From a virus (Duplodnaviria; Caudoviricetes), in IMG/VR virus record IMGVR_UViG_3300009540_000001, positions 64,001-128,000 of that record: a stretch of 64,000 bases of DNA; one strand, given 5' to 3'. Below the pieces are notes generated by a model. The model worked only from the letters and a program-made list of their open reading frames with translations. It did not search any database and was not told the DNA's origin. Every line of letters starts with the position of its first letter. Position 1 is the stretch's first letter. Of this stretch, positions 8,190 to 28,110 are shown piece by piece. The position numbers and the translations under genes are program-made.

Positions 8190-8567
8190 GTGCCGAAGCT
8201 GTCCGACACCGTGAAGGGCGTAACCCAACGACAAGCAGCGTCGCTGCGGGGTTGGTACCGTAAGCCCGCCCCCGGCTTTTACGGGGTAAAGGACGGCTTC
8301 GACGCCGCCGCCAAAGGAGCGCACGTGAAGGTCTCGTCCGACAAGATCGCCGAGGCCCGCATGCGCGGCTACCTGCGCGTCCTCCAGAAGTACGCCCTCC
8401 TCGAGAAGTTCGACGAGCCGATCGAGGCCCTCGCGAAGCGCTTCGCGCAGAGCAACTTCGGCTACGGCGAGGACCCGAAGCCGCAGGCGAAGGGGCGGTT
8501 CCAGGGCTACGCCGGGGACCCGATGATGAGCCCGCCGAGCCCGGGTGCGACGCAGAGGAGCGTTTGA
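8190..8567 (+). CDS. Hypothetical protein (probable virion protein, KIA/KYA motifs)
   Basis: Fills the gap between the RNAP genes; coupled to the next ORF. Confidence 0.65.
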   Translation: MPKLSDTVKGVTQRQAASLRGWYRKPAPGFYGVKDGFDAAAKGAHVKVSSDKIAEARMRGYLRVLQKYALLEKFDEPIEALAKRFAQSNFGYGEDPKPQAKGRFQGYAGDPMMSPPSPGATQRSV

Positions 8568-9232
8568 TGGGACCTGGAGCACAAGTCGCCCTGGCAATGG
8601 GCATTCCCGCCGCCGCCGCGTCGCTCGGGGCCCTCTACCTGATGACGCCGAAATACCTTCGGCGGCAGATCGGCGAAGAGTTCCGCGACCCGCGCCTCTA
8701 CTCGAACCTGCGCGGCGCCGTCTCGCTCGAAGACCGCGACGAACGCGTCCGTGCGCATCGACACCTCGGTAAGGGCGACGGAAGTGTGCTCGGGGCGATG
8801 GCGACGGGGTTCGGAAGGAAAGAGGCAGGCGTCAAGAAAGAAGCCATGATCAAAGTCGCATACTACAACTCCAAGGTCGCATCTCTCGGCGCCATCGCCG
8901 GCGCCGCTGGCCGAACGCTGATGCACAACCCTCGCGCTGCCGCGACCGTTGCAGGCGGTGCCGTCGGCGCGGGCGCTGGCGCCCTCGCAGCGGGGCCGGG
9001 GAACCGCCTCGCGGGAGCCGCAGGCGGCGCAGCGATCGGAGCAGGCGCGGGTAACCTCGCGACGCGCGGCGCTGCTGGGCGGGATGCCGTCGCAGGCGTA
9101 GGCCGTAGGTTGCGCGACGCCGCGCCCGCCAGGGCCATCCCCGCGCTCGGTAAGGCTGTGCCCAACGCGGTCGCTGCACCCGTCGCGGTTGCCGCACCCG
9201 CGTTCATGGGGCCGCCGGGCGCCGCACGCTGA
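8564..9232 (+). CDS. Glycine-zipper membrane-type protein with K-x-A motifs
   Basis: KEA, KEA, KVA, KVA followed by GGAVGAGAGALAAG and GAAGGAAIGAGAG. Confidence 0.7.
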   Translation: MMGPGAQVALAMGIPAAAASLGALYLMTPKYLRRQIGEEFRDPRLYSNLRGAVSLEDRDERVRAHRHLGKGDGSVLGAMATGFGRKEAGVKKEAMIKVAYYNSKVASLGAIAGAAGRTLMHNPRAAATVAGGAVGAGAGALAAGPGNRLAGAAGGAAIGAGAGNLATRGAAGRDAVAGVGRRLRDAAPARAIPALGKAVPNAVAAPVAVAAPAFMGPPGAAR

Positions 9233-9235
9233 CCC

Positions 9236-11035
9236 ATGCAAACCTCCGTCGGCCAGTTCCTGATTAACGACGTCCTCCCCGACGGCTACAAGGTCAACGG
9301 CCCCATCAACAACAAGGGGCTGCACGACCACGTCGTCGGCCTCGCCAAGAGCGACCCGGCGAAGTACGTCCAAACGATCATGGCGCTCAAGCGGCGTGGC
9401 GACGAGATCGCCACGCATGAGGGCATCACCGTGGGGCTCGACGACATCGAGCCGGACTACGAAGCCCGCGACGCGATCATGAAGCCCGCCATCCTGAAGA
9501 TGAAAGGGCTCAAGACCGACAAGGCGAAGGAGACCCACATCCTCGAGACGCAAGCGGCGATGACGGCGCAGACGAAGCTCCACAAGGGCTCGATGACGCA
9601 CATGGCGCTCTCCGGCGCGCGCGGCAACATCGCGCAGCTGATGAAGATCGTCTCGACCCCGCTCGCCACGGTGCATCCGAAGCACGGCGTGTCGCACACG
9701 CTGTTCGATCGCTCGTACGCCGAAGGGCTCACCCCCGCGCAGTACTGGCTCGCAGGGCCTGAGATCCGCGCGAACGAAGTCGCGGCGCGCATCTCCGTGT
9801 CGGAGCCCGGCGAGATGGCGAAGGTCCTCGTCGCGAACACCGTGTCGCAGATCGTGACGCAGTCGGACTGCGGGACGATGAACGGCGTAAAGATGGGGGT
9901 CGACGACTCCCACACGCTGGATCGGCACACGCAGGAGACGCACGGTCTGCACAGGAATACGCTCGTGACGCCGCAACTCCTTCAGAACTTGAAGGCGCGC
10001 GGAGTAGGGGACCTTCTAGTAAGGTCTCCGATGACCTGCATCGCCCCTCGCGGCGTCTGTCAGATGTGCCAAGGCCACAACGAGAAGGGCCACCTGCACC
10101 CGATCGGCATGACCGTCGGCGTGCGCGCCGCGCAGGCCATGGCCGAGCCGCTGACCCAGATGGCGCTCTCGAGCCGCCACGGCACGCTGAGCGTCAAGGG
10201 AACGACGCAAGCCCCCACGGGGCTGAAGGGCGTGCGCCAGCTCTTGGATGTGCCTGCGGCGTTCAAGGGCGAAGCGACGCTCGCCCCCGAAGCGGGTGTC
10301 GTGGCGAAGATCGAGGTTGCGCCGCAAGGCGGGCACTTCATCACCGTGGGCTCGAAGAAGACGTACGCTCGGCCGGACTTCGCGCTGCGCGTGCGTGTCG
10401 GCGACCACGTCGAGTTCGGCGACGTCATGACCGACGGCGTCCCGCACCCCGCGAAGGTCGTAGCCGCCAAGGGCCTCGGCGCAGGGCGCAAGTACTTCGT
10501 CGACGCGATGCACAACCTGTACAAGGACGAAGGCGTCAACCTCGACAAGCGCCACCTGGAGCTCTTGGCGAAGTCGGAGATCAATCACGTCAGGTTGCTC
10601 GAGGCGGACCCGCACCACCCGGAGTTCCTCAAGGGAGACGTCATCAACTACAACTCCTTCCGGGACGCATATCACAAGGACTCGGAGAAGGTCCGCCTCT
10701 CCGACGCCGTAGGGCACCGCCTCGGGCAAGAGGTTCTGCATCACACCGTGGGCACGGTTCTCACGCCGTCCGTCCTCAAGGAGCTCGACAAACACGGGGT
10801 CCGTGAGGTAGCGGTTACCAAGGCCATGCCTCGGCTCGAGTTCGTGATGAAGCCGTTCGCGATGAACCCGCTGCTCGAGCAGGACTGGATGGCGCGCCTC
10901 GCCCACCGGTACCTGAAGTCCACAGTGCAAGAAGCAGCCCACTTCGGCGAAGTCGCAGACGTCCACGGGACCCACCCCGTCCCGGCGTACGCTTACGGTG
11001 CGGAGCTCCATCACGGGCCCGGAGGAATCTTCTGA
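9236..11035 (+). CDS. rpoC: RNA polymerase beta' C-terminal subunit
   Basis: SGARGNIAQL, SYAEGLTPAQY (before the bridge helix), SDCGT, VRSPMTC..GVCQMCQG (Zn site), GVRAAQAMAEPLTQMALSSRH (trigger loop), LDKRHLELL. Confidence 0.93.
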   Translation: MQTSVGQFLINDVLPDGYKVNGPINNKGLHDHVVGLAKSDPAKYVQTIMALKRRGDEIATHEGITVGLDDIEPDYEARDAIMKPAILKMKGLKTDKAKETHILETQAAMTAQTKLHKGSMTHMALSGARGNIAQLMKIVSTPLATVHPKHGVSHTLFDRSYAEGLTPAQYWLAGPEIRANEVAARISVSEPGEMAKVLVANTVSQIVTQSDCGTMNGVKMGVDDSHTLDRHTQETHGLHRNTLVTPQLLQNLKARGVGDLLVRSPMTCIAPRGVCQMCQGHNEKGHLHPIGMTVGVRAAQAMAEPLTQMALSSRHGTLSVKGTTQAPTGLKGVRQLLDVPAAFKGEATLAPEAGVVAKIEVAPQGGHFITVGSKKTYARPDFALRVRVGDHVEFGDVMTDGVPHPAKVVAAKGLGAGRKYFVDAMHNLYKDEGVNLDKRHLELLAKSEINHVRLLEADPHHPEFLKGDVINYNSFRDAYHKDSEKVRLSDAVGHRLGQEVLHHTVGTVLTPSVLKELDKHGVREVAVTKAMPRLEFVMKPFAMNPLLEQDWMARLAHRYLKSTVQEAAHFGEVADVHGTHPVPAYAYGAELHHGPGGIF

Positions 11036-11772
11036 TGCCCCTCGACGAAGAGACGCTGTACGCCGTAAAGATCGCGGCTTGGGATCGCCGTGCGGCGCTT
11101 TACGGCGTAGAGAAGGTCGCCGTCGACTGGCGCGGCCTAGCGACGCGGGCCTTCGGCGAGAACAAAATTGCGCCGTCCAAACCCGGCTTCTGGAACAAAA
11201 CGAAGGCCTTTGGCAAGCACGTCGGCGAGTTCGGCCGCGAGATGATCCTCGGTAGCCCGATCACCGAGTACCAGAAGATGAAGGCCCGCATGGCGAAGCC
11301 CGGCGTCGGCCTCGGCCGAGCCCTCGCGGGCCATGCCAAGGACTTCTACATCACCCCCGACAGCAAGTTCTTCACCGCGCTCAACGTCGGTATGCCCGCG
11401 TTCGATCTCGGAAACACCCTGCTGCGCGGCGACCCCGATACACGTAAGGGCGACATCGCCCACGGCGTCGCGGGCATCGCAGCGGCGCCGTTTACCTCGC
11501 GCTTGGGGATCCCTGGGATGATGATCCAGCAGGCGGTACAGTCGGGGGCACAGTCGCTCGGACATCGGTTCGACAAGGCGAAGGACATGACGCCAACGGG
11601 GGGCCGCTCACAAGGACGGCAGTTGCTCGACCTCAGCGATCGTCCCCCTGTCGTCCCCTACCCCGCCCCGCTCGACCACCCTCTGATCACCGGCGCCCGC
11701 GAAGTCGCCAGGACCGCGCCGGCGCAACACGCCCTCAACGCCTTCAAAGCCTCCCAACCCACCTCGGGCTGA
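11035..11772 (+). CDS. Hypothetical protein (KIA/KVA N-terminus; probable internal head protein)
   Basis: Coupled to the rpoC-C stop; typical codon usage. Confidence 0.7.
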   Translation: MPLDEETLYAVKIAAWDRRAALYGVEKVAVDWRGLATRAFGENKIAPSKPGFWNKTKAFGKHVGEFGREMILGSPITEYQKMKARMAKPGVGLGRALAGHAKDFYITPDSKFFTALNVGMPAFDLGNTLLRGDPDTRKGDIAHGVAGIAAAPFTSRLGIPGMMIQQAVQSGAQSLGHRFDKAKDMTPTGGRSQGRQLLDLSDRPPVVPYPAPLDHPLITGAREVARTAPAQHALNAFKASQPTSG

Positions 11773-11806
11773 GTCCACCTAGACTTAGCCGCGCAAGGAG
11801 CAACAC

Positions 11807-13747
11807 GTGCAGACCAATCTGTTCACTCGTAACTACCTCAAGGGCGTGTCCGACGGTCTGATCGACCAGGGCGCCCTGGCCCCGTGGGGCGACGACAAGA
11901 TCGCGACCGAGGTCTTCGACAAGATCGCCAGCGATCACAACCTGCCCGCGATCCTGTCGGAGCAGCTCCCGGACGACGTGAACATCTCGCTCGGCCGGCA
12001 CCTCCAGCACTGGTCGAAGGTCGCGCACGAGAAGAACCTCGGCGCAGGCCCGACGGCCGTCGTGCAGGCGAAGCACGCCTCGCTCGCGTCGCGCGAGCTG
12101 CGCGCGGCCTCGAGCGCCGCGTACTACATGGACAAGGCCGCCGAAGACGGCGCGCTGAACGGCGTGGGCGAGAACACCCCCGAAGCCGCCACGGCGAACA
12201 ACGCCATCGCGCGCCTCGACCAGGCGAACCGCTCGACGTTCATGTACCTCGTCGGCATGGGCAACACGGACATGCCCGAGGGCGGCGTCGTGGGCCGGCA
12301 GATGGCGCACCCGATGGCGCCGAAGGGCCCGGCGATCAACAACTCGCTGACGGGGCTCGACAAGCAGGCCAGCGAGTCGGACTTCACCAAGGCCGCCAAC
12401 TTCATCGAGGCGCTCATGAAGCGCGGGGCGCAGCCCACGGTGAAGATGGTGCTCGCCGCCGCCAGCATGGCGGAAGGTGAGTACGACGGTCTCGAGCTGA
12501 TGACCGACATCGTTCGGCACGTGAAGACGGCCGAGGAGCTCGACGGCGCGCTCGACGACGTCAACAGCGCGACGGACGAGGCCTCGGCGCCTCCGAACCC
12601 GCAGCTCGTCGAGCTGATCGAGAAGGCGCTCGCGCACTACTTCGAGACGCACCCCGACATGGCCGGCGCGCACGGCGAGCCGGACGGCGACGAAGCTCCG
12701 GCGGACCCGGCGGGCGAAGGCGACGCGCCCCCGGCGCCGATGGAGGGAAAGACGGCGTCCACCATCAGCGGTCCGCGCAACCTGAAGGAAGTGCCCAAGG
12801 CCCTCGCCACGGGCGCGAAGCACATCGCCGGAAAGGCCAAAGACGAGCTCTCTCACGTTCCCAACTTCTTCAAGACGTTGAAGAACCGCAAGGATCTGAC
12901 CTCGGAGTTCGGCAAGGACATGGTCGATCGCACGCTCAAGGAGCACGGCAAGGGCGCGCTCCGCGTGGGTGGGGCGGCGGCGGGCGTTGGCGCGCTCGGC
13001 GCGGGCGCCGCGTATGCGGCGACGCGGGACAAGAAGAAGGAAGCGGCGTGGTACGACCCCGAGGTCCTCGGGACGGAAGCCCTCCACCGTGAAGGCCTCG
13101 CGCCGCTGGAGGTGGGCCCGGCCCTCGAGCACGCCGACGCGATGAAGCGCTACCTGGGCAAGGCCCCGCTGGGTGAGCGCGCGCTCGAAGGCGCCAAAGA
13201 CGTCGGGCACGCAGGCCTCGACAAGGTGAAGGCCCTCGGCGCGCTCATGAACCGCAACCGCCTCGCCACCGCCGGCATCGGCGCGGGCGTCCTCGGCCTC
13301 GGCGCGGGCGGCGCCTACCTTGCCTCGCGCGGCGGCTCGAAGGAAGCCCAGCTCCTCGCCGAGCTCTCCAAGGCCGCCACGGACGGCGCGCTGAACGACC
13401 CGGGGACCAACACCCCCGCCGAGGCCGCCGCCGTCAACGCAAACGCCCGGCTCGACATGCAGAACCGCAGGCCGGAAGAGTACCTGAACGGCGTGGGCGA
13501 CACCGCCATGCCGAACAAGGGCCATCTCGGCGAGAGCATGCCGGCGCCCAAGGGCCCGGCGAAGACCAACCCGCAGACGACGCCCGTGAAGGAAGCGTCG
13601 TTCGAAGCCTCGATCCGCTCGGCCGGCGAGTACTGGGGCCCCAAGCTCCCGGCTTCGATGCCGGTGAGCGAGAAGCGCGCGCACGTGATCGCGCTCGCGG
13701 GGATGCCCGAAGCGTACCGCGCGAACTACGTGCGGAACCTCGGCTAA
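11807..13747 (+). CDS. Large modular protein with K-x-A sites, an internal repeat and two Gly-rich hydrophobic segments
   Basis: AAGGAG RBS and TAGACTT box upstream; duplicated KAAxDGALN...PKGPA unit. Confidence 0.8.
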   Translation: MQTNLFTRNYLKGVSDGLIDQGALAPWGDDKIATEVFDKIASDHNLPAILSEQLPDDVNISLGRHLQHWSKVAHEKNLGAGPTAVVQAKHASLASRELRAASSAAYYMDKAAEDGALNGVGENTPEAATANNAIARLDQANRSTFMYLVGMGNTDMPEGGVVGRQMAHPMAPKGPAINNSLTGLDKQASESDFTKAANFIEALMKRGAQPTVKMVLAAASMAEGEYDGLELMTDIVRHVKTAEELDGALDDVNSATDEASAPPNPQLVELIEKALAHYFETHPDMAGAHGEPDGDEAPADPAGEGDAPPAPMEGKTASTISGPRNLKEVPKALATGAKHIAGKAKDELSHVPNFFKTLKNRKDLTSEFGKDMVDRTLKEHGKGALRVGGAAAGVGALGAGAAYAATRDKKKEAAWYDPEVLGTEALHREGLAPLEVGPALEHADAMKRYLGKAPLGERALEGAKDVGHAGLDKVKALGALMNRNRLATAGIGAGVLGLGAGGAYLASRGGSKEAQLLAELSKAATDGALNDPGTNTPAEAAAVNANARLDMQNRRPEEYLNGVGDTAMPNKGHLGESMPAPKGPAKTNPQTTPVKEASFEASIRSAGEYWGPKLPASMPVSEKRAHVIALAGMPEAYRANYVRNLG

Positions 13748-13768
13748 TCCTGACGGATTCGTAGCGAC

Positions 13769-13808
13769 GAAGGCTCGGAGAGGAAACTCTCCGGGCCTTC
13801 TCTCTTTT
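13769..13808 (+). terminator. Rho-independent terminator
   Basis: gaaggctcggagag-gaaa-ctctccgggccttc stem-loop followed by a pyrimidine/T tract. Confidence 0.75.
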
Positions 13809-13829
13809 ACGCTGTTCCCTTCTTTCGCT

Positions 13830-13836
13830 TACACTT
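13830..13836 (+). promoter_or_regulatory. TACACTT -10-like box, leaderless spacing
   Basis: Follows a terminator; 6 nt before ATG 13842; no SD. Confidence 0.6.
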
Positions 13837-13841
13837 CGTGT

Positions 13842-16049
13842 ATGACCATGGACGGCGGCTTCCCCCTTTCTCAGTCCCCGCGCACGCAGGGCTTTCAGCA
13901 GCCCCCGGCAGGCCCGCAGGACGAGGAGGAGATCTTCTCGACGAGCTTCAGGGACCTCGCGTACCGCGCCTTCCAGAAGACGCAGCCGCAGCTGTTCCCC
14001 CAAGTCGTCACCTTTCGCGTGCTCGCCGTCGACGCCCCCAACGGGGAAGGTGTCGGCGCGTTCATCGTCAAGGCCGAGGGAGAGATCCTCTTCGTGCCGG
14101 TGGTCATCGCGGACAACGCCGTGAAGCCGCTCGACATGTTTTACGCGCGTTCGAAGGACCGGTTCTACCCGCTCACGTCCGAGTGGGTCGACCGCCTTCA
14201 GATGGACTCGGTGACGTCTCTCGGCGACGGCGTGAAGCCCCCGAAGGACCTGAACACCGACGTCGACATCCGCAACGTGATCGTGCCGCCGACGACGGGT
14301 CGGTACAGCTACGCGGAGCTCGAGCAGGAGTGCGTCGCGCCCTTTCGGGCGGCAGCGGCCTACGGTCGCGAGAAGCGCGCGTCCGAGACGCTCGTGTTCC
14401 CTGAGTTGCTCTCTCGCATGCCCGACGGCACGAAGATCGCGGCGGCCGAGTACCTGCGCGCGCACGTCGGCGTCTTCAAGAAGCTGGCCGAGGTGTACGG
14501 CGTAAAGACGCTGGACATGGCCCTGCGCCCCTCGCGTACGAAGGTCGCCCACGACCATCGCCTCGAAGTCCCCATGAAGCACGACATCTTCATGGCGGAC
14601 GCGTCGATGCCCTTCCAAGACGTGAAGAAGAGCCTCAGCAAGGACGAAGTGGGCCCCGCGTACCAGGCCATTCGACTGCACGGCTTCTACGTCAAGGATC
14701 GCCGCAAGAGCGTCCCCAACGACGTCGACGTCGTCGGTGAGTCGACCTTCGCGCTCGAGCGCCCGGAATCCTCGGGGCTTTACCGCGTGTTCCTCACGGA
14801 CGGCACGGTCGAGAAGGCCCTCGTCGTCGTGAACCCCATCGACATGAACGGCGGGGAGATGTCGGACACGTACCAGGCGAACCGACAGTACCGTCCGCGC
14901 ACCGAGTACCAGGTGTTCTTCCAGGACGGGCGAAGCGGCCTCGTCGATACGCTCCTCGCCGAGCCTGTCGCGACGGAAGCCTTCGAGGACATCGAAGAGT
15001 TCCTGAAGGGCTGCACCTCCGAGCGTCCGGGCAACGACGAGCACGGCGCTTTCGTGTGCGTGTGCGGCACGACGCTGCGCGCGACGCACATCTTCAAGGC
15101 GTGCGACGTGTCGAGCCATAACGACCTCGTGACGATGAAGGCGAACTCGGAGTTCGGTCCGCCCGTGATCTTCTCGAAGAAGATGTCGGGCCCGGCCGTC
15201 ATCCGACCCGCTGGCCAGAACACCATGGTCATCCCTGGCTCGTACAAGTGGTTCAAGTCGAAGACGAAGACGCAGCCCGCCGCGCCCTTCCCCGGCGCCA
15301 AGCCGTACGTCAGCGCGGACCTGTTGACGGAGCAGTCGTTCCTCACGAACGCCGACATGATCCACCGCATGGTCGAGCGCGGCGTCGAGAAGACCGCGTC
15401 CGCGAAGATCTACTGCGTGAAGCACGGCTCGGACTTCGTCATCGAACCGGGCGGCTTCCCGCTCAAGGCCGTCGCGGCCACGGTGAAGCTCGCGTCGCGG
15501 TACGGCGTCACCCTCGGTGACGCCTCGCGCGTTGTCGAGGCGACGGCCAACGGCCTGCGCTTTACGGCGTACGCCACGCCGAAGCTGGCCGCTGGCGAAG
15601 CGCCTCCCCAGGCTCCGCAGCCCGACCCGGCCGCTGAAGCCGCAGCACAGGCCGCCATGCCCCCGCCCCCGCCCTCGGGGATGGAGCTCGCCCTCGCCGA
15701 GAAGATGCAGCTGCTTCAGCAGCAGCAAGCGTCCATCGCGCAGATGCAGCAGCTCGTGAGCGAGCTCCAGCAGCGCGCAATGGGCATCGACCAGGGCGGC
15801 GGGGCGATGGCCGCGCCGATGGCCGCCGCAGGGATGCAGGCGGGAGCTCCGGCGGACCCCGGCGCGATGGCGCCGGTGCCGGGCATGCCCGGCGACCCGG
15901 CGATGGCACAAGGCGGAGCGCCGCAGGGTGCGCCCCAAGACCCGAACGCCATGGCGGCGCAGGGCGCGCCCCAAGACCCGAACGCGATGCCGATGGACCC
16001 GAACGCGATGCCTGCGCAAGGGCAGGACCCGTTCATGGGAGGCATGTAG
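13842..16049 (+). CDS. Large hypothetical (probable head) protein with a P/Q/M/A-rich C-terminus
   Basis: 735-aa ORF; EKRAS, TKIAA, TKVAH, EKTAS, VKLAS motifs; PQDPNAM repeats; ends in a TAG in frame with the next ORF. Confidence 0.8.
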   Translation: MTMDGGFPLSQSPRTQGFQQPPAGPQDEEEIFSTSFRDLAYRAFQKTQPQLFPQVVTFRVLAVDAPNGEGVGAFIVKAEGEILFVPVVIADNAVKPLDMFYARSKDRFYPLTSEWVDRLQMDSVTSLGDGVKPPKDLNTDVDIRNVIVPPTTGRYSYAELEQECVAPFRAAAAYGREKRASETLVFPELLSRMPDGTKIAAAEYLRAHVGVFKKLAEVYGVKTLDMALRPSRTKVAHDHRLEVPMKHDIFMADASMPFQDVKKSLSKDEVGPAYQAIRLHGFYVKDRRKSVPNDVDVVGESTFALERPESSGLYRVFLTDGTVEKALVVVNPIDMNGGEMSDTYQANRQYRPRTEYQVFFQDGRSGLVDTLLAEPVATEAFEDIEEFLKGCTSERPGNDEHGAFVCVCGTTLRATHIFKACDVSSHNDLVTMKANSEFGPPVIFSKKMSGPAVIRPAGQNTMVIPGSYKWFKSKTKTQPAAPFPGAKPYVSADLLTEQSFLTNADMIHRMVERGVEKTASAKIYCVKHGSDFVIEPGGFPLKAVAATVKLASRYGVTLGDASRVVEATANGLRFTAYATPKLAAGEAPPQAPQPDPAAEAAAQAAMPPPPPSGMELALAEKMQLLQQQQASIAQMQQLVSELQQRAMGIDQGGGAMAAPMAAAGMQAGAPADPGAMAPVPGMPGDPAMAQGGAPQGAPQDPNAMAAQGAPQDPNAMPMDPNAMPAQGQDPFMGGM

Positions 16050-16073
16050 CCCGAGCAGCCGCCGCCCACGGCC

Positions 16074-19938: not shown

Positions 19939-20793
19939 ATGCGCCCCCTCGACACCTGGAACGCCGTCAAGCGCGCCGCCGCACAAGACGAAGACCTCGG
20001 CACCGGCCTCGCGAAGATCGCCCTGGCGCTGTGGGCGTCGCACGACGCGCACACGAAGGTCGGCCATGATCAGGCCACCCGCGAAGCGTTCGTCGCGAGC
20101 GTCGTCGGCGCCGCCGTCGTCGACGCGCAGATCGAGAAGCTCGCGCTCGACCGCAGCGACAAAGCGTTCCTGCTGAACTTGAACGCCGTCGCGGCGCTCG
20201 AAGACCTCTCGCAGTTCACGAAGTCCTCCGGCATGCTCGACTTCCTCGCGAAGCACCCTGCCGCCGTCGGAGCCGTGATTGGCGGCGCGGGCGGCGCGGG
20301 CTTCGGGGCGTACGCCGACGACGAGAACCGCCTGAGAGGCGCGGTGCGCTTCGGTGTGCCCGGCGCGATTGGCGGGGCGCTCGTGGGTCACGGCGTGCAC
20401 CAGATGAAGGCGGAGAACGCGGAGAAGGAGCTGATCAAGACGCGCGACGCAGCTAAAGCGACGCGCGACGAAGAAGCGCACGCGCTCGCCAAGGCCCGAG
20501 CAGCACGGGACGGCCAAGCGCACGGGACGCATCAAGCCCACACGCAAGCGCAGACGACGGGGCAAGAAGCGTACACGCGGCGGGAAGAGGAGCTGCACCA
20601 GCTCGAGCTCAAGCGCCGAGAGGCGCAAGTGAAACAAGAGCAGGCTAAGGCTGACGACATCAAGATGCGGGCGGAAGTCTGGCGGACGAACAACCTGAAG
20701 CCGCCCCCGCCCCCGCCACCGCCGCCTCCGCCGGCGGCGCCCACGGCTGGATCGAAACTCCAGTCGCTCCAGGGCGCGCTCTCTACGCCGTAA
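19939..20793 (+). CDS. Glycine-zipper plus coiled-coil protein with a poly-Pro tail
   Basis: AVGAVIGGAGGAGFGA, GVPGAIGGALVG, and a PPPPPPPPPPP run. Confidence 0.75.
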   Translation: MRPLDTWNAVKRAAAQDEDLGTGLAKIALALWASHDAHTKVGHDQATREAFVASVVGAAVVDAQIEKLALDRSDKAFLLNLNAVAALEDLSQFTKSSGMLDFLAKHPAAVGAVIGGAGGAGFGAYADDENRLRGAVRFGVPGAIGGALVGHGVHQMKAENAEKELIKTRDAAKATRDEEAHALAKARAARDGQAHGTHQAHTQAQTTGQEAYTRREEELHQLELKRREAQVKQEQAKADDIKMRAEVWRTNNLKPPPPPPPPPPPAAPTAGSKLQSLQGALSTP

Positions 20794-20826
20794 AGACCCG
20801 CTCACGACTCATAGGTAAGGTTCTAC

Positions 20827-23805
20827 GTGGAGAAGCTCCTCGAACTCGACTCCCACTTCCCCAAGACGGGGGAGCCGACCGTCTCTCTCGTCGCCTGGGG
20901 TGACGGGCGCGGCGGGCTCACGCTCGAGAAGCGTGCGTTCGCGGAGAGCCGCTCTCCGATGTACGACTTCCTGAAGACCGTGCAGCCCGAGGCCGGGTGC
21001 TCGTTCATCCTCGTGAACGCCCTCGGCGCGTACGAGTACTACGACGACAACCGCAACGGCGACGGCTTCCCAGCGCGCCCCTTCAAGGTCGGCGAGCTCG
21101 CGACGTGCGGGCACCCCGAGTGCTCGAAGTCCCTCGACGGGTGGATCTCGGACGAGGAGACGCTCGTGCGTCACTTCAAGACGTTCGAGAAGCACGGGAA
21201 CATCTACCGGAACCACAAGAACTCGGACCCGTCGACGTCGCTCGGCTACATCCAGAAGGCCATCTGGAACGACCGGATGCACCGGGTCGAGCTGCTGCTC
21301 AAAGTCGTGAACGACCGGGCGCCGGACCTCGCGGAGCGTATTGCGTCGCACGACTCGATCCCAGTTTCGATGGGCTGCTTGGGGGTAGGTACCCCCATCA
21401 CGCTGGCTGATGGACGGCGTAAGGTCGTCGAAGATGTTGTCGTGGGCGACCGCGTACGAACACACTTGGGCAACGCGCAACGTGTGTTCGAGTTGCACCG
21501 TCGGACCTACGTCGGCGTGGTGCACACCATCAAGCCCGAGGGCGGGCCTCCGCTCACGGTCACGCACGAGCACCCATTCTTTGTTGCCAAGTTCCACGAC
21601 GTCAAACGGCGCCATGGGAAGAAGGAACGACCGTGGCTGGATGATGCTTGCGTCAACGGCGTATGGAAGTTGGCTAATGAACTCGACGCGGACAGACACC
21701 TACTGCTGCAACCGATCGACCGGACGGTTGAGACACCGGAAGAAATCACGCTGCCTCTCGCGAGGCTCCTCGGCTATTACCTAGCCGAAGGGAGCTTGCT
21801 CCGCGATGAGAACGGCCTGCATCTGGGCATCGACCTCAACTGCCACCAGGACGACGAACTGCTGAAAGAGCTCCCGTCACTGATCGAAGCGTTGCACTTG
21901 CCGGAGCCGTACATCTCCGTGCGTTCGCACAGCGCTTGCGCACGTAGCGTCCGTGTCTACTCGCAACACTTGGCCCTCCTGTGCCGCGACTTGATGGGCG
22001 TCTACTCCAAGAAGAAGTTCCTCGACGCGTCCGTCATGCTGTGGGCACCAGAACTCCAACGTGCGCTCTTCGGCGCCTACGCCAACGGTGACGGCTGCGG
22101 TAACAAGAACGGCAGCCTCCAGATCTCGACGAGCTCGGAAGAGCTGGCGACGCAGCTGCTCTCGTTGCTTCCGCGCTTCGGGGTACTCGCGAGCCATCAA
22201 GTGCTCGAGCACAAGCCCAACAAGCTCGTGAAGATCCCGACGACGGAGCACGTCGTCTACATTGGCAAGCAGTGGGCGCAGGGTCTTCGCGACGTATGCG
22301 CGAAGATCAAGACCTCCGAGGTCAAAGCGAAAAAAGAAGTTCGCAAGATCATCGGGGACTATATTGTCATCCCAATCCGTAACATCGACCGTACGGCCGG
22401 CTCCATGCCGGTCTACAACTTCGAAGTCGAAGAAGACAACAGCTACGTGGCGGGCGGCGTCGCCGTTCACAACTGCCATGTCCGCTGGGACGTCTGCACC
22501 ATCTGCGGCCACCGCGCCCCGACGCGCGCGCAGTACTGCGAGCACGCGCTGCGTTCGCTCCGTCAGGTGCTCCCCGACGGGCGCAAGGTCTCGGTGCTGA
22601 ACCCCTCTCCCAAGTTCTTCGACATCTCCTTCGTCTTCCGCCCGGCGGACCCGACGGGCTGGATGCTGAAGAAGGTGGCGGACGTGTCCCACGGCCGACC
22701 CTCGGCCGAGCTCGGCGAGCGCGTCGCCGCGTATCGCTCCCGGGCCTTGGAACTCCGCACCAACACCCAGAAGGTCGCCTCCGACCTCGCGGGCCCCTAC
22801 GGACGTGTCGCCGCCGACGTCGTCTCCGAATGGCCGGCGCTCGAGGGCCAGGCGCTCGACACGCTCGCGAAGCTCGGCTCGCTCTCCGACACGCTCTCGA
22901 CGCTCACCGCCGTGGGCGTCGTACTGAGCAACGCGGAGGTCACGCAGCTGATGGCGAAGAAGGCGGGGATCCCCTGCCCGCCGTCGGACCTCGACCGCCT
23001 CTCGGCCCTTCAGCCCGCGCTCGAGGAAGTCCTTACCCGCTACCCCTCAGCCGCCGCGAAGCTCGCCGAGCTCGTGGACTTCCGTCTTGACGGCGTAAAG
23101 CCCCAACGTCTCGCCGCCATCACGGACTGGGTCGAGAAGCGCGGCGGCTACGCGGACTACGCCCGCACGGTCGCCTACGCGCCCTCCGACACCTTCCAGC
23201 TGCCCTTCGGACCGGGCGCGTCGTACCGGGCATATCAGCCCGGTCGCACCGAGCTTCTGACGATGACCGACCCGAGCACCGGGCAGCAGTACCAGACGAC
23301 GCGCGGCGCTGCGCAAGACGCAGGGAACGAGAAGAGCCGCAGCCAGCTCGCGGGTACCGCGCTGCTCGGCGCCATGTACGCCGGCGGGCTGCGCGCGGCG
23401 CTCGGGCGTCGCGCGGGCCTGTGGACGATCCCTGTCGGGCTCGCCGCCGGGTGGGCGACGACCAAGGCGATCAAGGACAACTTCCCGGCGTTCCGGCACC
23501 CGACGTACATGACCGACCAGGGGATCCCGGTGTCAGGTGGGACAGAGTTCAACAAGGTCTCTGCGTTCGAGCGCCCCACACCGGCAGACGTCGTGCACAA
23601 GGCGGCACTCGACGAACGCCCCTTGGCGAAAATCGCCTCGCACTCCCCGAACTTCTCGTCGTGGCTCGCTTCGACTTCCCTTTCGGAGAAGGTCGCGGCT
23701 ATCGTTGCGGGTGCCGAGACGGACGCTCACGACGTCGGCGCCCCGCCCGAGCTGGACCTCGCCGTCGTCGTCCACAACGTCTGCCACATCGTGTGGGCCG
23801 ACTAA
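20827..23805 (+). CDS. Probable prohead (maturation) serine protease containing an intein, with a long C-terminal extension
   Basis: IYRNHKN (His) and PVSMG/C (nucleophile-like Ser motif of HK97/assemblin-type proteases); CTICG..YCEH Zn motif; lies upstream of scaffold-like and capsid genes. Confidence 0.65.
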   Translation: MEKLLELDSHFPKTGEPTVSLVAWGDGRGGLTLEKRAFAESRSPMYDFLKTVQPEAGCSFILVNALGAYEYYDDNRNGDGFPARPFKVGELATCGHPECSKSLDGWISDEETLVRHFKTFEKHGNIYRNHKNSDPSTSLGYIQKAIWNDRMHRVELLLKVVNDRAPDLAERIASHDSIPVSMGCLGVGTPITLADGRRKVVEDVVVGDRVRTHLGNAQRVFELHRRTYVGVVHTIKPEGGPPLTVTHEHPFFVAKFHDVKRRHGKKERPWLDDACVNGVWKLANELDADRHLLLQPIDRTVETPEEITLPLARLLGYYLAEGSLLRDENGLHLGIDLNCHQDDELLKELPSLIEALHLPEPYISVRSHSACARSVRVYSQHLALLCRDLMGVYSKKKFLDASVMLWAPELQRALFGAYANGDGCGNKNGSLQISTSSEELATQLLSLLPRFGVLASHQVLEHKPNKLVKIPTTEHVVYIGKQWAQGLRDVCAKIKTSEVKAKKEVRKIIGDYIVIPIRNIDRTAGSMPVYNFEVEEDNSYVAGGVAVHNCHVRWDVCTICGHRAPTRAQYCEHALRSLRQVLPDGRKVSVLNPSPKFFDISFVFRPADPTGWMLKKVADVSHGRPSAELGERVAAYRSRALELRTNTQKVASDLAGPYGRVAADVVSEWPALEGQALDTLAKLGSLSDTLSTLTAVGVVLSNAEVTQLMAKKAGIPCPPSDLDRLSALQPALEEVLTRYPSAAAKLAELVDFRLDGVKPQRLAAITDWVEKRGGYADYARTVAYAPSDTFQLPFGPGASYRAYQPGRTELLTMTDPSTGQQYQTTRGAAQDAGNEKSRSQLAGTALLGAMYAGGLRAALGRRAGLWTIPVGLAAGWATTKAIKDNFPAFRHPTYMTDQGIPVSGGTEFNKVSAFERPTPADVVHKAALDERPLAKIASHSPNFSSWLASTSLSEKVAAIVAGAETDAHDVGAPPELDLAVVVHNVCHIVWAD
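21376..22473 (+). mobile_element. Intein (366 aa) with LAGLIDADG homing endonuclease
   Basis: N-terminal CLGVGTPITLADG, block B VTHEHPF, LLGYYLAEG and LFGAYANGDG, C-terminal VYNFEVEEDNSYVAGGVAVHN followed by Cys+1. Confidence 0.95.
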
Positions 23806-23823
23806 TCTACTCCCAGGAGTCCC

Positions 23824-24372
23824 ATGAACCTCGACAGCGTCCTGAAGAACCTCGACACGACCCTCGCCCCCGCCGCCGAGAAGACGGCCAGCGAGCGAGC
23901 CCCGACCACCCGCGCGAGCTCGCTCGTCGACGACGCCGTGCGCTCGGTGACGACGCGCTCGAAGACCGCCTCGGCTTCGGCCCCGGTCGAAGGCGCGCTC
24001 GACAAGCTCGCCGCGCACATGGCGAGCCAGTCGGCAGACGGCGCGGCGAAGGTCGCGCACACCATCGGGCAGGCCATGGCGGACGGCTTCGTCTCGCAGA
24101 TGTCGGTCTACGAGAACGCGGCCGAGCAGCTCAACGCGAAGACCGCGTCGGAGATCGACCCCGACCTGCTCAAGATCGCTGCCTTCGCGAAAGAAGACCC
24201 GCGCGGCTTCATGGCGTGGGCCTCGAAGCAAGCGGGCTCGGACGACGCGATCGTCAAGCAGGCCGAGATGGAGGCCGCTGAAGAGCTCGAGGCCGCGACC
24301 TTCAAGGGCGCCGCCGCTCACTGGGACGCCGGGTACGAGGTCGGCGCGCTGATGGGCTCGTCCAGGGAATGA
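23824..24372 (+). CDS. Probable scaffold/internal head protein rich in KTAS/KxA
   Basis: AGGAG RBS; EKTAS, SKTAS, DKLAA, AKVAH, AKTAS, LKIAA, SKQA, VKQA. Confidence 0.75.
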   Translation: MNLDSVLKNLDTTLAPAAEKTASERAPTTRASSLVDDAVRSVTTRSKTASASAPVEGALDKLAAHMASQSADGAAKVAHTIGQAMADGFVSQMSVYENAAEQLNAKTASEIDPDLLKIAAFAKEDPRGFMAWASKQAGSDDAIVKQAEMEAAEELEAATFKGAAAHWDAGYEVGALMGSSRE

Positions 24373-24557
24373 ACCGGGCGCGCGAGCACAAGCTGATCGA
24401 GTTGCACGCCGCGATGCGCAAGGTCGCGTTCGCGGCGGTCACTCCCGAGGTCGAGAAGACCTTCGGAGAGCTGCGCGAGCAGCTCGGATCGGCGAAGCAC
24501 GCCTTCGAACTCAGCGCCCTCGACCCAACCTTCCTGCGCCACCTGACGACGGAGTAG
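24369..24557 (+). CDS. Small hypothetical protein
   Basis: ATGA-coupled; RKVA, AKHA. Confidence 0.6.
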   Translation: MNRAREHKLIELHAAMRKVAFAAVTPEVEKTFGELREQLGSAKHAFELSALDPTFLRHLTTE

Positions 24558-24561
24558 AGCA

Positions 24562-24891
24562 ATGCCCAGCTTGGACGACGCGCTCTTCGACCTCTCCCTG
24601 CGCCCGCAAGGTCGCTCGAAGAGCGCCGAGCTGCGCGACCTCGCTGGCGCGCTCAGCCGCGCGCAGCAAGAGCCCGTGACCTTCGAGGACCTGTACGCCG
24701 TAAAGACGGCCGGCGAGGCACCCGAAGCTCCGAGCGGCGACGACGCCCTTCCCGGCGCTCCGCTACGCAAGCTCGCACACGCCGTACGCGTTGCCGAACA
24801 CACCCTCGAGACTGAACGTCTCGAGAAGGTGGCCACCCTCCGACGCGCCGTTCGCGGCCTTACCCTTCTGAACGAGCGAGTGAGCAAGTGA
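24562..24891 (+). CDS. Hypothetical head-associated protein
   Basis: KSA, KTA, KLA, KVA motifs. Confidence 0.7.
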   Translation: MPSLDDALFDLSLRPQGRSKSAELRDLAGALSRAQQEPVTFEDLYAVKTAGEAPEAPSGDDALPGAPLRKLAHAVRVAEHTLETERLEKVATLRRAVRGLTLLNERVSK

Positions 24892-25238
24892 GCAACCCCT
24901 TCTCCAAGATCGCCTCGGCCCTCGAAGCCCTCGCGGACGAGATCGACCACGGTCCGTCCGTGGCGCCCGCGCCGGCGATCGAAGCCCCCAAGGCGTTCGA
25001 CAAGACGGCGGCCCTGAACGTCCTTCAAGACCTCGGGGTCGAAGCAGACTCGCTGCTCGAGCATCCGGCAGCGCTCGCGCTGCTCGAGAAAGTAGCTCGC
25101 TCGCGTGTCGCACCCGAACCGCTCGGTGAGCCGAGCGACTATCGAGGCTCGAGCCCGCCGGCGCCGCGCAACAAGGCGGAAGCCGTCAAGCTCGCCTACG
25201 ACGCGTTCGCAGACGGCATCATGAGCGACGCGGACTGA
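24888..25238 (+). CDS. Hypothetical scaffold-like protein
   Basis: SKIAS, DKTAA, EKVA, VKLA; lies immediately before the capsid operon. Confidence 0.7.
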   Translation: MSNPFSKIASALEALADEIDHGPSVAPAPAIEAPKAFDKTAALNVLQDLGVEADSLLEHPAALALLEKVARSRVAPEPLGEPSDYRGSSPPAPRNKAEAVKLAYDAFADGIMSDAD

Positions 25239-25849: not shown

Positions 25850-26770
25850 ATGTCTTACCAGACGGAAACCACGCAGCAGCAAGCGACGCTGCTGAACCAG
25901 CGCTTCATCAGCATGCTCGAGGCAGGGCAGACGAAGCAGGCCGAAGACCAGGGCACGGCGTTCATTCGCTCGATCGTCCGCCAGGAGTGCGCCGCGCGCC
26001 TGGTGATCGTGCCGCAAGGCCTGACGAACGACGAGCTCGATCGCGACGTGAACAGCGATCTGCCCCGCAAGATCGTCGAGAAGGAGCCCGACTCCTCGGC
26101 GACGTACGTGCAGTTCGACGGCACCCCGCGCGCCCGCTGGTTCCGGGGCAAGCGCTACGTGGTCTACTTCGGTAAGACCCAGAGCGACATGTTCGTCAAG
26201 AGCAAGTTCAAGCTCATGACGTACCAGAACGACATCCGCAAGATCCTCGCTGACAACAGCGTGAAGGACCTCGCGGACCAGGAAGACATCCTCTTCCGCC
26301 GCACATGCCTCACGCTCGTGAACCGCAACGCCGCCGTGCAGCGCACCCAGATGCCGGCCTTCACGAACGCCGCGTTCGTCAAGGCGTTCCAGGCGATGGA
26401 CAAGCGCCGCCGCCCCATCGGCAAGATGCTGATGACCAACGCCCTGTACCGCGAGGCGATGAACCTCCCGGCGACCCAGGTCGGCTCGGACATCGCGAAG
26501 CGCCACTACATGGAGGGCGCCGACAAGGAGTCGATGCTCTGGGGCATCCCCGCCATTCAGACGGCGAAGACCGACATCTACAACCCCGAGGAGTGCTGGG
26601 TGTTCTCGCCGCAGAACTTCCTCGGCAACTTCTTCCTCCTGCAAGACGCCACGCTCTTCATCGAGCAGCGCGCCGACATCATCACGTTCTTCTCGTACGC
26701 CGCGCCGGGCATCGGCATCGGCAACAGCGAGTCGATGCAGCAGCTGGTCTTCGGCTCCGTCCCGACGTGA
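25850..26770 (+). CDS. Major capsid protein (HK97 fold)
   Basis: AAGGAG RBS, strong codon bias, size and position after protease/scaffold/decoration genes; DIRKILADNSVKDLADQEDILF spine-helix-like segment; TKQA near residue 30. Confidence 0.75.
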   Translation: MSYQTETTQQQATLLNQRFISMLEAGQTKQAEDQGTAFIRSIVRQECAARLVIVPQGLTNDELDRDVNSDLPRKIVEKEPDSSATYVQFDGTPRARWFRGKRYVVYFGKTQSDMFVKSKFKLMTYQNDIRKILADNSVKDLADQEDILFRRTCLTLVNRNAAVQRTQMPAFTNAAFVKAFQAMDKRRRPIGKMLMTNALYREAMNLPATQVGSDIAKRHYMEGADKESMLWGIPAIQTAKTDIYNPEECWVFSPQNFLGNFFLLQDATLFIEQRADIITFFSYAAPGIGIGNSESMQQLVFGSVPT

Positions 26771-26812
26771 TCTGACTGACAGACTTAGTGCCGTAGCGTC
26801 TATGCTAGACGC

Positions 26813-27082
26813 ATGCGCTACGCACTGAGCCCGGCGACCCTCCGGGACTACGACGAGGCTCTCTCCCTGCGTAAACACGCAGCGGAGGGCGCCTCGTCGG
26901 CCGTTGTGAGTCCTACGGCTCCGTCCCCGCCCACTCCCACGACGTACAAGGCGCAGAAGCCCCCTCCGCAGCCCGGGGACTACAAGGCGCCCTTCTTGGA
27001 CAACTCGGGCCTCGCGGCCCAAGCGTCGTCCGCGACGCTCTTCCAGGAGGGCAAGGAGAAGTCCATGCCGGTGACGCGGTGA
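26813..27082 (+). CDS. Small Pro-rich hypothetical protein
   Basis: TATGCT box 6 nt before ATG. Confidence 0.6.
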   Translation: MRYALSPATLRDYDEALSLRKHAAEGASSAVVSPTAPSPPTPTTYKAQKPPPQPGDYKAPFLDNSGLAAQASSATLFQEGKEKSMPVTR

Positions 27083-28110
27083 GCGTGTTTACGCAAGGGA
27101 CCGGCACTGCGTACCCGAGTCAGCGCTCGAGCGCAGCCTCACGCAAAGAGCAGACGGCGCTGGATGCGGGCACCGCGTTCAACACCATCGACACGCTGCG
27201 CGCGATCAACCCGGATGCGGACTCGGGGCCGCCTTACGCGGTAAAGGGGGCGGCCCTGCGCACGAAAGTCGCGGTTAGCCCGACCTTCGTCGAGAGGCGC
27301 GTCGCAGCGGCGCGAGCAACGCCAGCCCGTCTTCAGCAGTTTGCGACGAAGATGCGAGGGCGCGCCGAGAACGCGTACGAAAACTCGCGCAGCGCATTCG
27401 GGGCTGCCAACGATTACATGGTCCAGGGCCGCCATAACCCTGAATCCATCCTTCCCGGGCACCAAGAACAAGAAAACTTCTTCGCAGGCCACGCTTGGCG
27501 TGAACGCGAGCTCGGGCATAAGTTCCAAGCAGCGCACGACACCGCGAACGTCCGGCTAGGCCTGCCGGTGGCACCGTTCGACATTGCCGCGCATAACGCC
27601 GCGAGCGACACCCGAGGCAGGTTGGCGCCCGAATTCCGCACTCTCGTGGGCTCGAAGGTCGCCGGCCACCCCCACGACCGCATCGAAGAGCGCACGCCGC
27701 TGCACAAGGGCAACATCGAACCCTTGCAACGCGCCGTGGACTTCCTCGGTCTTTCCCCTGGCTCCTATCACCTCCCTCTACGCGGTAAAGACGGTCAGGT
27801 CCTCGGCTACGCTCAGTTCAAAGGCGTGCCGAACCGCAAGGGGCCCGTGCTCGCGACGGTGCTCGCGCCGCACATGACGCCGGGCGGCGTCAATCTCGAG
27901 ACGTTCACGAAGAAGGCGGAGCTCGCGACGAGCGGCACCCCGCGACAGTCGGGCCTGTTCGACACCGACGACCGCGCGCCGCTCCCTCCCGAAGCGCTCG
28001 GCTGGAACGGAACGCATCAGACGGTGGGACGGCAGGAGTCCACGGGGTACGCGATGCGCCGCGCCTTCGAAGACGTGAACCACGCGGTGCCCGAAGGGGC
28101 CATGGAATGA
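27079..28110 (+). CDS. Modular protein with K-x-A-bounded segments, one resembling a small RNase-toxin fold
   Basis: TKVA, SKVA and KKA boundaries; HPHDRIEER...VLATVL. Confidence 0.65.
   Translation: MSVFTQGTGTAYPSQRSSAASRKEQTALDAGTAFNTIDTLRAINPDADSGPPYAVKGAALRTKVAVSPTFVERRVAAARATPARLQQFATKMRGRAENAYENSRSAFGAANDYMVQGRHNPESILPGHQEQENFFAGHAWRERELGHKFQAAHDTANVRLGLPVAPFDIAAHNAASDTRGRLAPEFRTLVGSKVAGHPHDRIEERTPLHKGNIEPLQRAVDFLGLSPGSYHLPLRGKDGQVLGYAQFKGVPNRKGPVLATVLAPHMTPGGVNLETFTKKAELATSGTPRQSGLFDTDDRAPLPPEALGWNGTHQTVGRQESTGYAMRRAFEDVNHAVPEGAME

Follow-up and report, generated by a model that had tools for sequence, protein, structure and literature searches.

Why should so plain a pattern as K-x-A (Lys, any residue, Ala) crowd the head genes of an uncultured phage? 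The question is raised by the window analyzed here, a stretch of 64,000 nucleotides (nt) that corresponds to bases 64001-128000 of one 172,374-bp uncultured phage contig with 66% guanine plus cytosine (GC), in which the pattern recurs across the open reading frames (ORFs) between the portal and capsid genes, including a 992-residue ORF at 20827-23805 that bears an intein. The K-x-A motif is genuine, is found throughout the lineage, and belongs specifically to the head module, and the reading that we favor, and hold to be probable from the sequences, is that it serves as the recognition and cleavage motif of the phage's own gp21/assemblin-type prohead protease, the predicted product of the intein-bearing ORF, with the cut probably falling after Ala. 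Positions below are those of the window, ORFs are named by their first nucleotide, and features lie on the plus strand except where the minus strand is given.

Evaluating K-x-A against within-protein shuffles in 16 ORFs at 8190-25238, with the gene for the RNA polymerase (RNAP) beta'C subunit left out, revealed 81 occurrences where approximately 40 were expected (z 7.2-7.4), such that the density between portal and capsid reported in a preliminary description of this DNA stands as a genuine excess over the Ala/Lys background in the ORFs running from RNAP to capsid. K-x-A ranked first of the 400 a-x-b patterns in these ORFs and was top at gaps 0-3, with K-x-x-S also raised. The enrichment from Lys to Ala was found only at spacing +2, with gaps 0, 2, 3, 5, and 6 at chance and gap 4 depleted (z -3.1). 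The rest of the genome held 197 K-x-A for 221 expected, and among the seven proteins that reached p<0.02 genome-wide, five belong to the head module (ORFs 11807, 17183, 23824, 24562, and 24888); ORF 13842 was significant for the narrower pattern K-x-A-[S/A], with 5 observed and 0.8 expected. Sheath, tube, and other tail genes were at chance, in line with the sparsity of the motif noticed earlier in sheath and tube.

Such an excess could in principle be a by-product of composition, of secondary structure in Ala/Lys-rich helical scaffolds, or of a motif acting in the DNA, and the proteins are indeed Ala-rich, with several of them predicted to be helical or disordered. We regard this explanation as highly improbable because only Ala at +2 of Lys is enriched, with no enrichment of A-x-K or R-x-A in the same 16 ORFs, and because block shuffles that keep local composition (blocks of 10, 20, and 40 residues) still gave z 7.5-8.2 for K-x-A. 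At the nucleotide level, the pattern was found 81 times in frame 0 versus 10 and 3 times in the other frames and 11 times on the reverse strand, and its codons were mixed, so the signal acts at the level of protein. It also holds in relatives whose GC ranges from 46 to 71%.

These relatives provide the broadest view of the motif. IMG/VR holds at least 80 uncultured relatives with capsid identities of 51-82%, and the closest cultured ones are Salmonella phage Arash (40% identity in capsid, 32% in portal) and three Vibrio phages (35% in capsid). Thirty-one uncultured relatives offered 6 kb or more of sequence ahead of the capsid gene and together span the GC range above; in all 31, K-x-A was enriched 2-3 fold in that upstream part (z 5-11.5), with downstream z values of -1.4 to 2.9. 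Pooling 12 distant relatives gave 631 K-x-A versus 235 expected (z 31), the next pattern being L-x-K at z 11.6, and in this pool R-x-A, K-x-S, and K-x-G were at or below chance. The cultured phages behaved alike: in Arash, K-x-A was counted 10 times versus 3.0 expected in gp220, 7 versus 3.2 in gp222, 8 versus 3.1 in gp223, and 7 versus 1.9 in gp225, and in Vibrio phage D69 it was counted 11 times versus 3.9 in 0268, 8 versus 3.0 in 0270, 10 versus 2.8 in 0271, and 6 versus 1.6 in 0273, with zero K-x-A in the D69 tail genes.

Applied to phage T4 as a method control, the same statistics placed I-x-E (z 4.1) and L-x-E (z 3.7) at ranks 2-3 of 400 in the core proteins gp67, gp68, gp21, and gp22, and both patterns were at chance in the remaining T4 proteins. 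The footprint of an established gp21-type cleavage code thus looks the same, and its enrichment of 2-2.5 fold is similar too. The T4-type Glu code itself did not stand out in the 12 pooled relatives, where L-x-E was found 258 times versus 202 expected (1.28x, z 4.1) and I-x-E reached z 2.1.

Further evaluation of 1,296 unique sites in relatives showed that information beyond the Lys and Ala is confined to positions -2 to +4, with L/F/M/I at -2 (Leu at this position enriched 2.7x), E/V/T at -1, T/I/V/L at +1, S/A/E at +3, and D/V/A at +4, giving a full footprint of hydrophobic-x-K-[T/I/V/L]-A-[S/A/E]. Both defining residues are strict: conserved sites held 282 Lys versus 2 Arg at the first, and 300 Ala versus 2 Gly, 2 Ser, and 2 Val at the second. 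Across orthologues, motif Lys was conserved above other Lys of the same proteins (0.41 vs 0.26, p=0.002), as was motif Ala above other Ala (0.50 vs 0.27, p=3e-5). Pro is depleted from -3 to +4, most strongly at +1 (0.13x), and Gly is tolerated at +3 only. A position weight matrix built from the flanks only, and trained on the relatives alone, scored the head-module sites of the window at a mean of +1.12, with 43% above 2, whereas K-x-A in the remainder of the genome averaged -1.10, with 9% passing that score (p=2e-11). By these measures the outlying genes at 32923 and 42105-44326, which had also been listed as motif carriers, drop out, being at chance and having no good-context sites.

Two registers of cleavage are compatible with these data. 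The scissile bond most likely follows the Ala, making Lys P3, Ala P1, and Ser or Ala P1', because the Ala is strict, the residue after it may be any of several small or polar ones, and the residue after Lys tends to be bulky and beta-branched; this register also agrees with the P3-x-P1 rule seen in T4, phiKZ, and SPN3US and with the Ala/Ser bond of assemblin (a slash marks the bond cut or joined here and below). The same protease and motif could instead be read with the cut after Lys, as hydrophobic-x-Lys/x-Ala, a counterpart of the T4 rule (L/I)-x-Glu/ in which the charge at P1 is reversed and Ala becomes P2'. The hydrophobic preference two residues before Lys, seen in the 2.7x for Leu and in the second rank of L-x-K, then falls where the T4 rule has its P3, Lys is indispensable, R-x-A being no commoner than chance, and Pro is most depleted just after Lys. 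We nevertheless consider a cut after Lys unlikely, as Ala is equally strict (300 versus 6 others), which is typical of a small S1 pocket like that of assemblin and unusual at P2'; as the residue after Lys prefers Thr, Ile, or Val and excludes Gly, which is odd for P1'; and as the residue after Ala takes Ser, Ala, Gly, Glu, Gln, or Thr, which is P1'-like, Ser being preferred at P1' in SPN3US and the herpesviruses.

The candidate enzyme is the 992-residue precursor at 20827-23805, which comprises an N-terminal gp21/assemblin-fold domain, the intein, and a scaffold-like C-terminal region of approximately 375 residues. Aligning 24-25 intein-less homologues revealed a conserved domain of approximately 250 residues with invariant H116, H130, N132, D134, S181-M-G, and a Cys/His cluster, and the window protein reads N129-H130 at the second of these. 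The putative catalytic Ser181 (codon at 21367-21369) and His130 (codon at 21214-21216) are thus both invariant in the 24-25 homologues. An AlphaFold model of an intein-less homologue (core predicted local distance difference test, pLDDT, 70-89) was submitted to an exhaustive structural search and to Foldseek. Its best structural match was T4 gp21 (PDB 5JBL; Z 8.9, root-mean-square deviation 2.7 A, 128 of 165 residues), followed by the varicella-zoster virus protease at Z 6.8 and the human cytomegalovirus protease at Z 5.6, with the best unrelated fold at Z 5.4; the top Foldseek matches were the same protease families at weak E values of approximately 0.2. In PHROGs, residues 116-208 matched phrog_18299, 'head maturation protease' (E 3.8e-8). 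Profile alignment with hhalign against T4 gp21 (E 0.018) paired NRNGDGFP with NRNKRLYP of T4, and in that register S181 falls on T4 Ser140 and the conserved His on a column adjacent to T4 His85, two residues that we take to be catalytic in gp21. The order of a His followed by a Ser some 50 residues on is that of gp21/assemblin-fold serine proteases (MEROPS clan SH). On its modeled fold, then, the product of ORF 20827-23805 is a divergent gp21/assemblin-fold serine protease. Public data hold at least 1,917 protein clusters of its family, every one named 'hypothetical'.

The intein (366 residues, 21376-22473, residues 184-549) carries Hint and LAGLIDADG parts (Pfam LAGLIDADG_3, Hint, Intein_splicing). 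It directly follows S181-M-G183, two residues past the putative catalytic Ser, and has Cys1, a C-terminal His-Asn, and a +1 Cys, such that its junctions read SMG/C...HN/C. In Arash gp222 and most relatives nothing separates the two exteins, and their exact abutment in the intein-less relatives confirms the intein boundaries. An intein was found at the same point in 7 of approximately 40 related loci, the others having none.

K-x-A is placed on this protease much as self-processing sites would be. The first, K35-R-A37 (20929-20937), lies in a low-pLDDT segment before the folded core and is a predicted N-terminal autoprocessing site, with K-x-A present at residues 31-42 in 24 of 25 homologues. 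The second, K616-V-A618 (22672-22680; residues 250-252 of the spliced protein), is predicted to release the catalytic domain, at whose end it lies, again in a low-pLDDT segment after the core, and K-V-A is found there in all 25. Two further sites, K935-I-A-S and K955-V-A-A (23629-23697; flank scores 3.4 and 3.5), lie 37-57 residues from the protein end, and all 25 homologues have at least one K-x-A among their final 45 residues. The EKRA at residue 35 and KKVA at residue 616 that had been pointed out before are therefore these conserved sites, and the QKVAS pointed out with them is present at residue 649. That the protease recognizes K-x-A, as had been proposed, is thus well supported, though indirectly, by the gp21/assemblin fold, the bracketing of the core in 24-25 of 25 homologues, the confinement of the motif to the head module throughout a very broad lineage, and the T4 control.

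Turning to the candidate substrates, the densest is ORF 23824 (182 residues, 23824-24372), a scaffold- or core-like protein in which we counted nine K-x-A, one more than previously reported, versus 2.5 expected (p<0.001). Seven of the nine sites are kept in 26 orthologues of 30-42% identity, where they remain in register between spacers of variable length, and cutting at all sites would leave peptides of 10-30 residues. Its Atlas model was of low confidence and the Atlas search returned no usable match. Directly downstream, three small ORFs of 62, 109, and 116 residues (24369-25238) hold 2, 4, and 4 K-x-A and are predicted core or scaffold peptides, with predicted fragments of 9-33 residues. 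ORF 17183 (271 residues, 17183-17998) has 8 K-x-A versus 2.3 expected (p<0.001), six of the eight with good flanks, and its homologue, Arash gp220, is a protein detected in virions. If every site were cut, ORFs 23824, 24369, 24562, 24888, and 17183 would be reduced to peptides of 9-55 residues.

The other candidates are ORFs 13842, 11807, and 11035. ORF 13842 (735 residues, 13842-16049) is a predicted internal head protein that corresponds by homology to the N-terminal portion of Arash gp218, with its sites in two clusters at residues 178-234 and 517-583; complete cutting would give pieces of 180, 283, and 152 residues. At K581-L-A583 (nt 15582-15590), K581 and A583 are invariant in 12 sequences, and in a structural model (pLDDT 61) this site sits exactly between a beta-rich domain (248-581) and a disordered tail, with sites 178 and 234 in low-confidence linkers. 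No convincing fold match was found for this model (Foldseek E of at least 0.017 with TM below 0.1; VIA Z of at most 6.4), and very weak chymotrypsin-fold matches, which would make ORF 13842 a second protease, were rejected, as no His, Asp, or Ser is invariant in the family. ORF 11807 (646 residues, 11807-13747) holds 15 K-x-A versus 7.1 expected (p=0.002) and has two repeat modules of approximately 35 residues (…DGALN…NTP…ARLD..NR), each of which directly follows a K-A-A (nt 12134-12142 and 13370-13378). The same protein has two Gly/Ala-rich hydrophobic stretches that resemble membrane or glycine-zipper segments. The K-x-A count of ORF 11035 (245 residues, 11035-11772) is not significant by itself; good-context N-terminal sites at K12 and K27 (flank scores 3.5 and 2.5) make it a possible substrate with a short propeptide.

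The major capsid protein (306 residues, 25850-26770) carries a single K-x-A, K29-Q-A31 (nt 25934-25942), which predicts an N-terminal propeptide of 31 residues. This is the TKQA that had been singled out near residue 30, and it fared well, with K29 and A31 invariant in 80 relatives while the residue between them and the one that follows vary; the equivalents at the same place are LVKEAG in Arash and LTKEAG in D69.

Assembled into a sequence of events, our favored reading would run as follows. The 366-residue intein would be spliced out of the precursor first, and the spliced precursor would co-assemble into the prohead by way of its scaffold-like C-terminal half, after which the catalytic core would be freed by cuts at K35-R-A37 and at the domain-end K-V-A. 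The small motif-dense core or scaffold proteins (23824, 24369-25238, and 17183) would then be degraded to peptides of 9-55 residues able to exit the shell, the larger internal proteins (13842, 11807, and 11035) would be trimmed at a few conserved linker sites, and approximately 31 residues would be removed from the capsid protein. Lastly, the packaged RNAP beta subunit would be cut at one surface loop, releasing any enzyme module inserted there.

This loop bears on a broader idea, namely that the head ORFs encode polyproteins made of cargo cassettes with K-x-A on their flanks, set free during maturation and then injected into the host, which is the full model of the preliminary description. 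K-x-A had also been listed in the RNAP, and an overall enrichment there does not hold, with 7 observed versus 11.8 expected in beta and 1 versus 3.9 in beta'C; what does hold is one specific conserved site or pair in a loop of beta. Because beta has only approximately 0.4 K-x-A per 100 residues, it is also the cleaner place to look for cassettes. In the window, the loop contains an InPase-like module of approximately 140 residues bracketed by VKKA (4998-5006) and EKEA (5418-5426), the feature as a whole covering 4998-5426. The insert (nt approximately 5007-5426) is absent from most relatives; its match to InPase (PF18823) has E 2e-4 in the window and reaches 30.7 bits, above the cutoff, in locus L087, which with L085 and L086 shows the same bracketed arrangement. 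The loop of L089 holds three modules, one of unassigned type, one InPase, and one P-loop AAA_18-like (E 3e-6), with K-G-A, K-K-A, K-T-A, and K-E-A at the junctions. Of seven uncultured relatives without an insert, six still have a K-x-A in this loop (KAA, KRA, KTA, KHA, KTA, and KTA) amid variable surroundings, and the Arash beta subunit has none there. Since K-x-A is found both at module junctions and in insert-free relatives, the loop looks like a conserved, insertion-prone cleavage site that took in modules at least two or three separate times.

Several observations touch on the RNAP and its modules. In the genome of L070, where beta is without the InPase-like insert, the insert is matched at G009:C1:93257-93463 (query residues 166-234, E 2e-10), within a separate ORF of 264 residues elsewhere in that genome. 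The beta N-terminus reads M-P-K-[S/K]-A-S in L081 (Arash gp206) and L083 (D69 0261), placing K-x-A-S at residues 3-6, and the window beta is without an N-terminal K-x-A-S. Avoidance of the motif by co-packaged proteins was considered and dropped, as the window RNAP is depleted (8 versus approximately 16) and the Arash and D69 RNAPs are not.

Beyond the loop with its 0, 1, or 3 modules, K-x-A junctions, and insert-free relatives that keep the motif, the cassette idea can draw on the repeat modules of ORF 11807 that begin directly after K-A-A, on the packaging of RNAP in Arash virions, and on one insert in an orthologue of ORF 17183 (L049:1502-2644), which is approximately 105 residues long, flanked by YVKTAG and FRKEAG, and Nudix-like by a sub-threshold NUDIX match (E 1e-3, 19.5 bits vs cutoff 21.1). 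A general insertion test across six head-module ortholog families (five motif-rich core proteins and the protease) gave it no such help. That test found 17 insertions, of which 7 are inteins, none K-x-A-flanked on both sides; 4 of the 10 non-intein inserts were flanked on both sides, which is not significant at a background of 0.76-0.95, and because the background is that high in motif-dense proteins the test is uninformative. The densest ORFs would moreover yield peptides of 9-55 residues, below domain size, and no enzymatic domain was found in ORFs 11807, 13842, 17183, or 23824. Breakdown of scaffold or core into such peptides suits the small, densest ORFs better than cargo does, and as a general account of the head ORFs we consider the polyprotein model doubtful, with the RNAP beta loop the part of it that survives. 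A bolder proposal, which we put forward tentatively as a possibility, is that K-x-A is a lineage-wide plug-in grammar in which cleavable loops and linkers of packaged proteins may accept enzyme modules (InPase, P-loop kinase-like, Nudix-like) that would be excised in the capsid and delivered with the RNAP, the protease perhaps being an intermediate between phage gp21 and assemblin with Ala/Ser specificity and an R-site/M-site layout.

Several points weigh against cleavage at K-x-A by this protease, and the first of these concern the motif itself. Approximately half of its occurrences in the window are expected by chance, those in ORFs 16455 and 18094 are unconserved in orthologues and are probably chance, and the Pro depletion from -3 to +4 does not pinpoint a scissile bond. 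The motifs had been described as falling at boundaries between distinct segments, which in ORF 13842 is true of K581-A583 and of the two linker sites, but 4 of its 7 sites (198, 214, 517, and 549) lie inside predicted helices. On the side of the enzyme, no third catalytic residue is pinned among the invariant candidates H116, D134, and D189 and the near-invariant H207, confidence in the protease model is only medium (pLDDT 68), its Z of 8.9 is just above the range regarded as common for the search method, and the hhalign E of 0.018 is weak. Pfam searches with four intein-less homologues gave no protease family at E of 1 or below, only noise, and a hidden Markov model profile of the family searched against PDB sequences likewise returned noise only.

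The proteome of Arash virions bears on the same matter. The preparations contain homologues of the head proteins, with both RNAP subunits the most abundant (PMC10585845). No cleavage product was seen, the paper mentions no processing, and sequence coverage was 80-100% for the homologues and 87% for the capsid protein (PMC10585845). The coverage gives no sign of lost propeptides, although the preparation was not stringent (116 of 272 proteins detected), and the values neither show nor exclude cleavage. The supplement gives annotation and no peptide lists. Near-complete coverage speaks for a reading in which K-x-A is never cleaved and is instead a docking or targeting motif that draws head-internal proteins to a protease exosite, the scaffold, or the inner face of the capsid, akin to a repeated capsid-targeting signal. 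Such a role would also suit the way K-x-A behaves as a short linear motif, keeping its register while the sequence around it varies and is partly disordered, and its confinement to proteins that enter the head. It would leave unexplained, however, the domain-end site of the protease and the site before its core, the single capsid site some 30 residues in, and the junction sites of the RNAP loop, and a 7-residue footprint with alternating determinants and Pro exclusion is the product expected of a protease subsite cleft, known cleavage codes giving the same statistical signature in the T4 control. We therefore hold docking to be improbable and retain cleavage by the phage's own protease as the explanation.

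Three proteins encoded away from the head module deserve mention for their K-x-A. A 338-residue orphan (G000:C1:44775-45791 = L084:2376-3389) is encoded 19 kb before the window, with the large terminase two genes downstream of it; it has 12 K-x-A versus 3.2 expected with mostly positive flank scores and is probably a further substrate of the protease. A 394-residue protein at 47096-48280 on the minus strand has a single K-x-A, LLKTASW at residue 36, whose flank score of 5.5 is the best in the genome, and this may mark a short propeptide on another virion protein. A 1,130-residue protein (genome 49932-53324) with 16 K-x-A was not counted as a substrate on account of its poor flanks.

The genes themselves, called in the window by codon-usage log-odds, form a plus-strand block from 938 to approximately 40,000 that runs from portal through RNAP genes, orphan ORFs, protease, and small ORFs to capsid and then neck, sheath, and tube. 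The portal gene (938-2689), identified by tblastn matches to the portals of Arash and phage G, marks the upstream edge of the head module, and its three K-x-A have flank scores of at most 0.3, none of them being in good context. The RNAP genes, recognized through Pfam and PHROG hits, encode a fusion of beta and beta'N (3201/3297-8183) and beta'C (9236-11035). Approximately 16 orphan ORFs separate the RNAP genes from the protease ORF, four small ORFs separate the latter from the capsid gene, and the neck, sheath, and tube genes come after the capsid gene. No Pfam or PHROGs family was found for ORFs 11035, 11807, 13842, 16455, 17183, 18094, 23824, 25279, and 27079, and neither ORF 27079 nor the block at 20-28.2 kb had a match in a phage collection searched at the nucleotide and protein levels. 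An in-frame TAG at 16047-16049, followed by 8 codons, splits what in relatives and in Arash gp218 is a single ORF into 13842-16049 and 16074-16445; low-complexity Pro/Met/Ala-rich sequence runs on both sides of it, and the TAG could be a nonsense mutation, a sequencing error, or a site of readthrough.

Head maturation by gp21/assemblin-type proteases is well known, and every studied phage enzyme of this clan that we know of cuts after Glu. We found no publication describing a Lys-x-Ala prohead cleavage code. A strict Lys-x-Ala rule, if true, would be a new specificity common to a very large unannotated lineage, and it would link phage and herpesvirus maturation more closely in P1/P1' chemistry and in precursor layout. 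For dozens of orphan head proteins in these phages, one can predict from the motif which are substrates and where propeptides and mature ends fall, and it identifies the protease gene as well as the RNAP loop where enzyme modules swap in and out. Because the lineage has a cultured member in Salmonella phage Arash, with mass-spectrometry data from its virions, the rule is directly testable.

Among known systems, T4 gp21 with its core substrates (gp22, gp67, gp68, gp23, and internal proteins) is the closest by structure, being the best match of the model and sharing the His/Ser register. In T4, as here, the protease gene stands among scaffold and core genes beside the capsid gene, core proteins with many motif copies are degraded (a fate that we infer for their counterparts in the window), and a three-residue P3-x-P1 motif leaves the same statistical footprint. 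The differences are that T4 cuts after Glu in (L/I)-x-E, whereas here L-x-E reaches only 1.28x against z 31 for K-x-A, and that the window protease has no Pfam-level match, carries a C-terminal fusion of approximately 375 residues and an intein, and is encoded in a head module that includes a multisubunit RNAP.

The giant phages are a second point of reference. No sequence similarity was detected between the window protease and phiKZ gp175 or SPN3US gp245. The latter cuts after A-x-E with Ser preferred at P1', and propeptides there carry several copies of the motif (PMC10052503). Shared with these phages is the processing, at a short P3-x-P1 motif, of head-internal or ejection proteins together with a packaged virion RNAP, along with long multi-motif propeptides and a self-cleaving protease (PMC10052503), features that in the window are predicted from the layout of K-x-A. 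Their motif ends in Glu (A-x-E), in contrast to K-x-A, and their genomes exceed 200 kb and follow another gene order.

For the module in the RNAP loop, the relevant known family is InPase (PF18823), which the beta module matches at the scores given above; the difference is that here it sits in a loop of a packaged RNAP, bracketed by a putative protease motif.

The herpesvirus pUL26 precursor, finally, resembles the window protease in layout. It belongs to the same fold family (Z 6.8 and 5.6 for the two herpesvirus proteases) and likewise joins an N-terminal protease to a C-terminal part that is scaffold-like, the scaffold role here being our reading of the region, and both carry a self-site where the protease domain ends and a further one close to the C-terminus, in the present family as predicted sites, with K-x-A in 25 of 25 homologues at each. 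In the herpesvirus precursor the C-terminal maturation site frees the scaffold from the capsid protein. The assemblin R- and M-sites read ...QA/T and ...QA/S within a protease-scaffold fusion (PMC4498786), such that Ala followed by Ser or Thr is matched here by a strict Ala followed by Ser, Ala, or Glu, where we place the presumed cut. The two differ at P3, which is Val or Leu there and Lys here, and in the extra site that precedes the core here.

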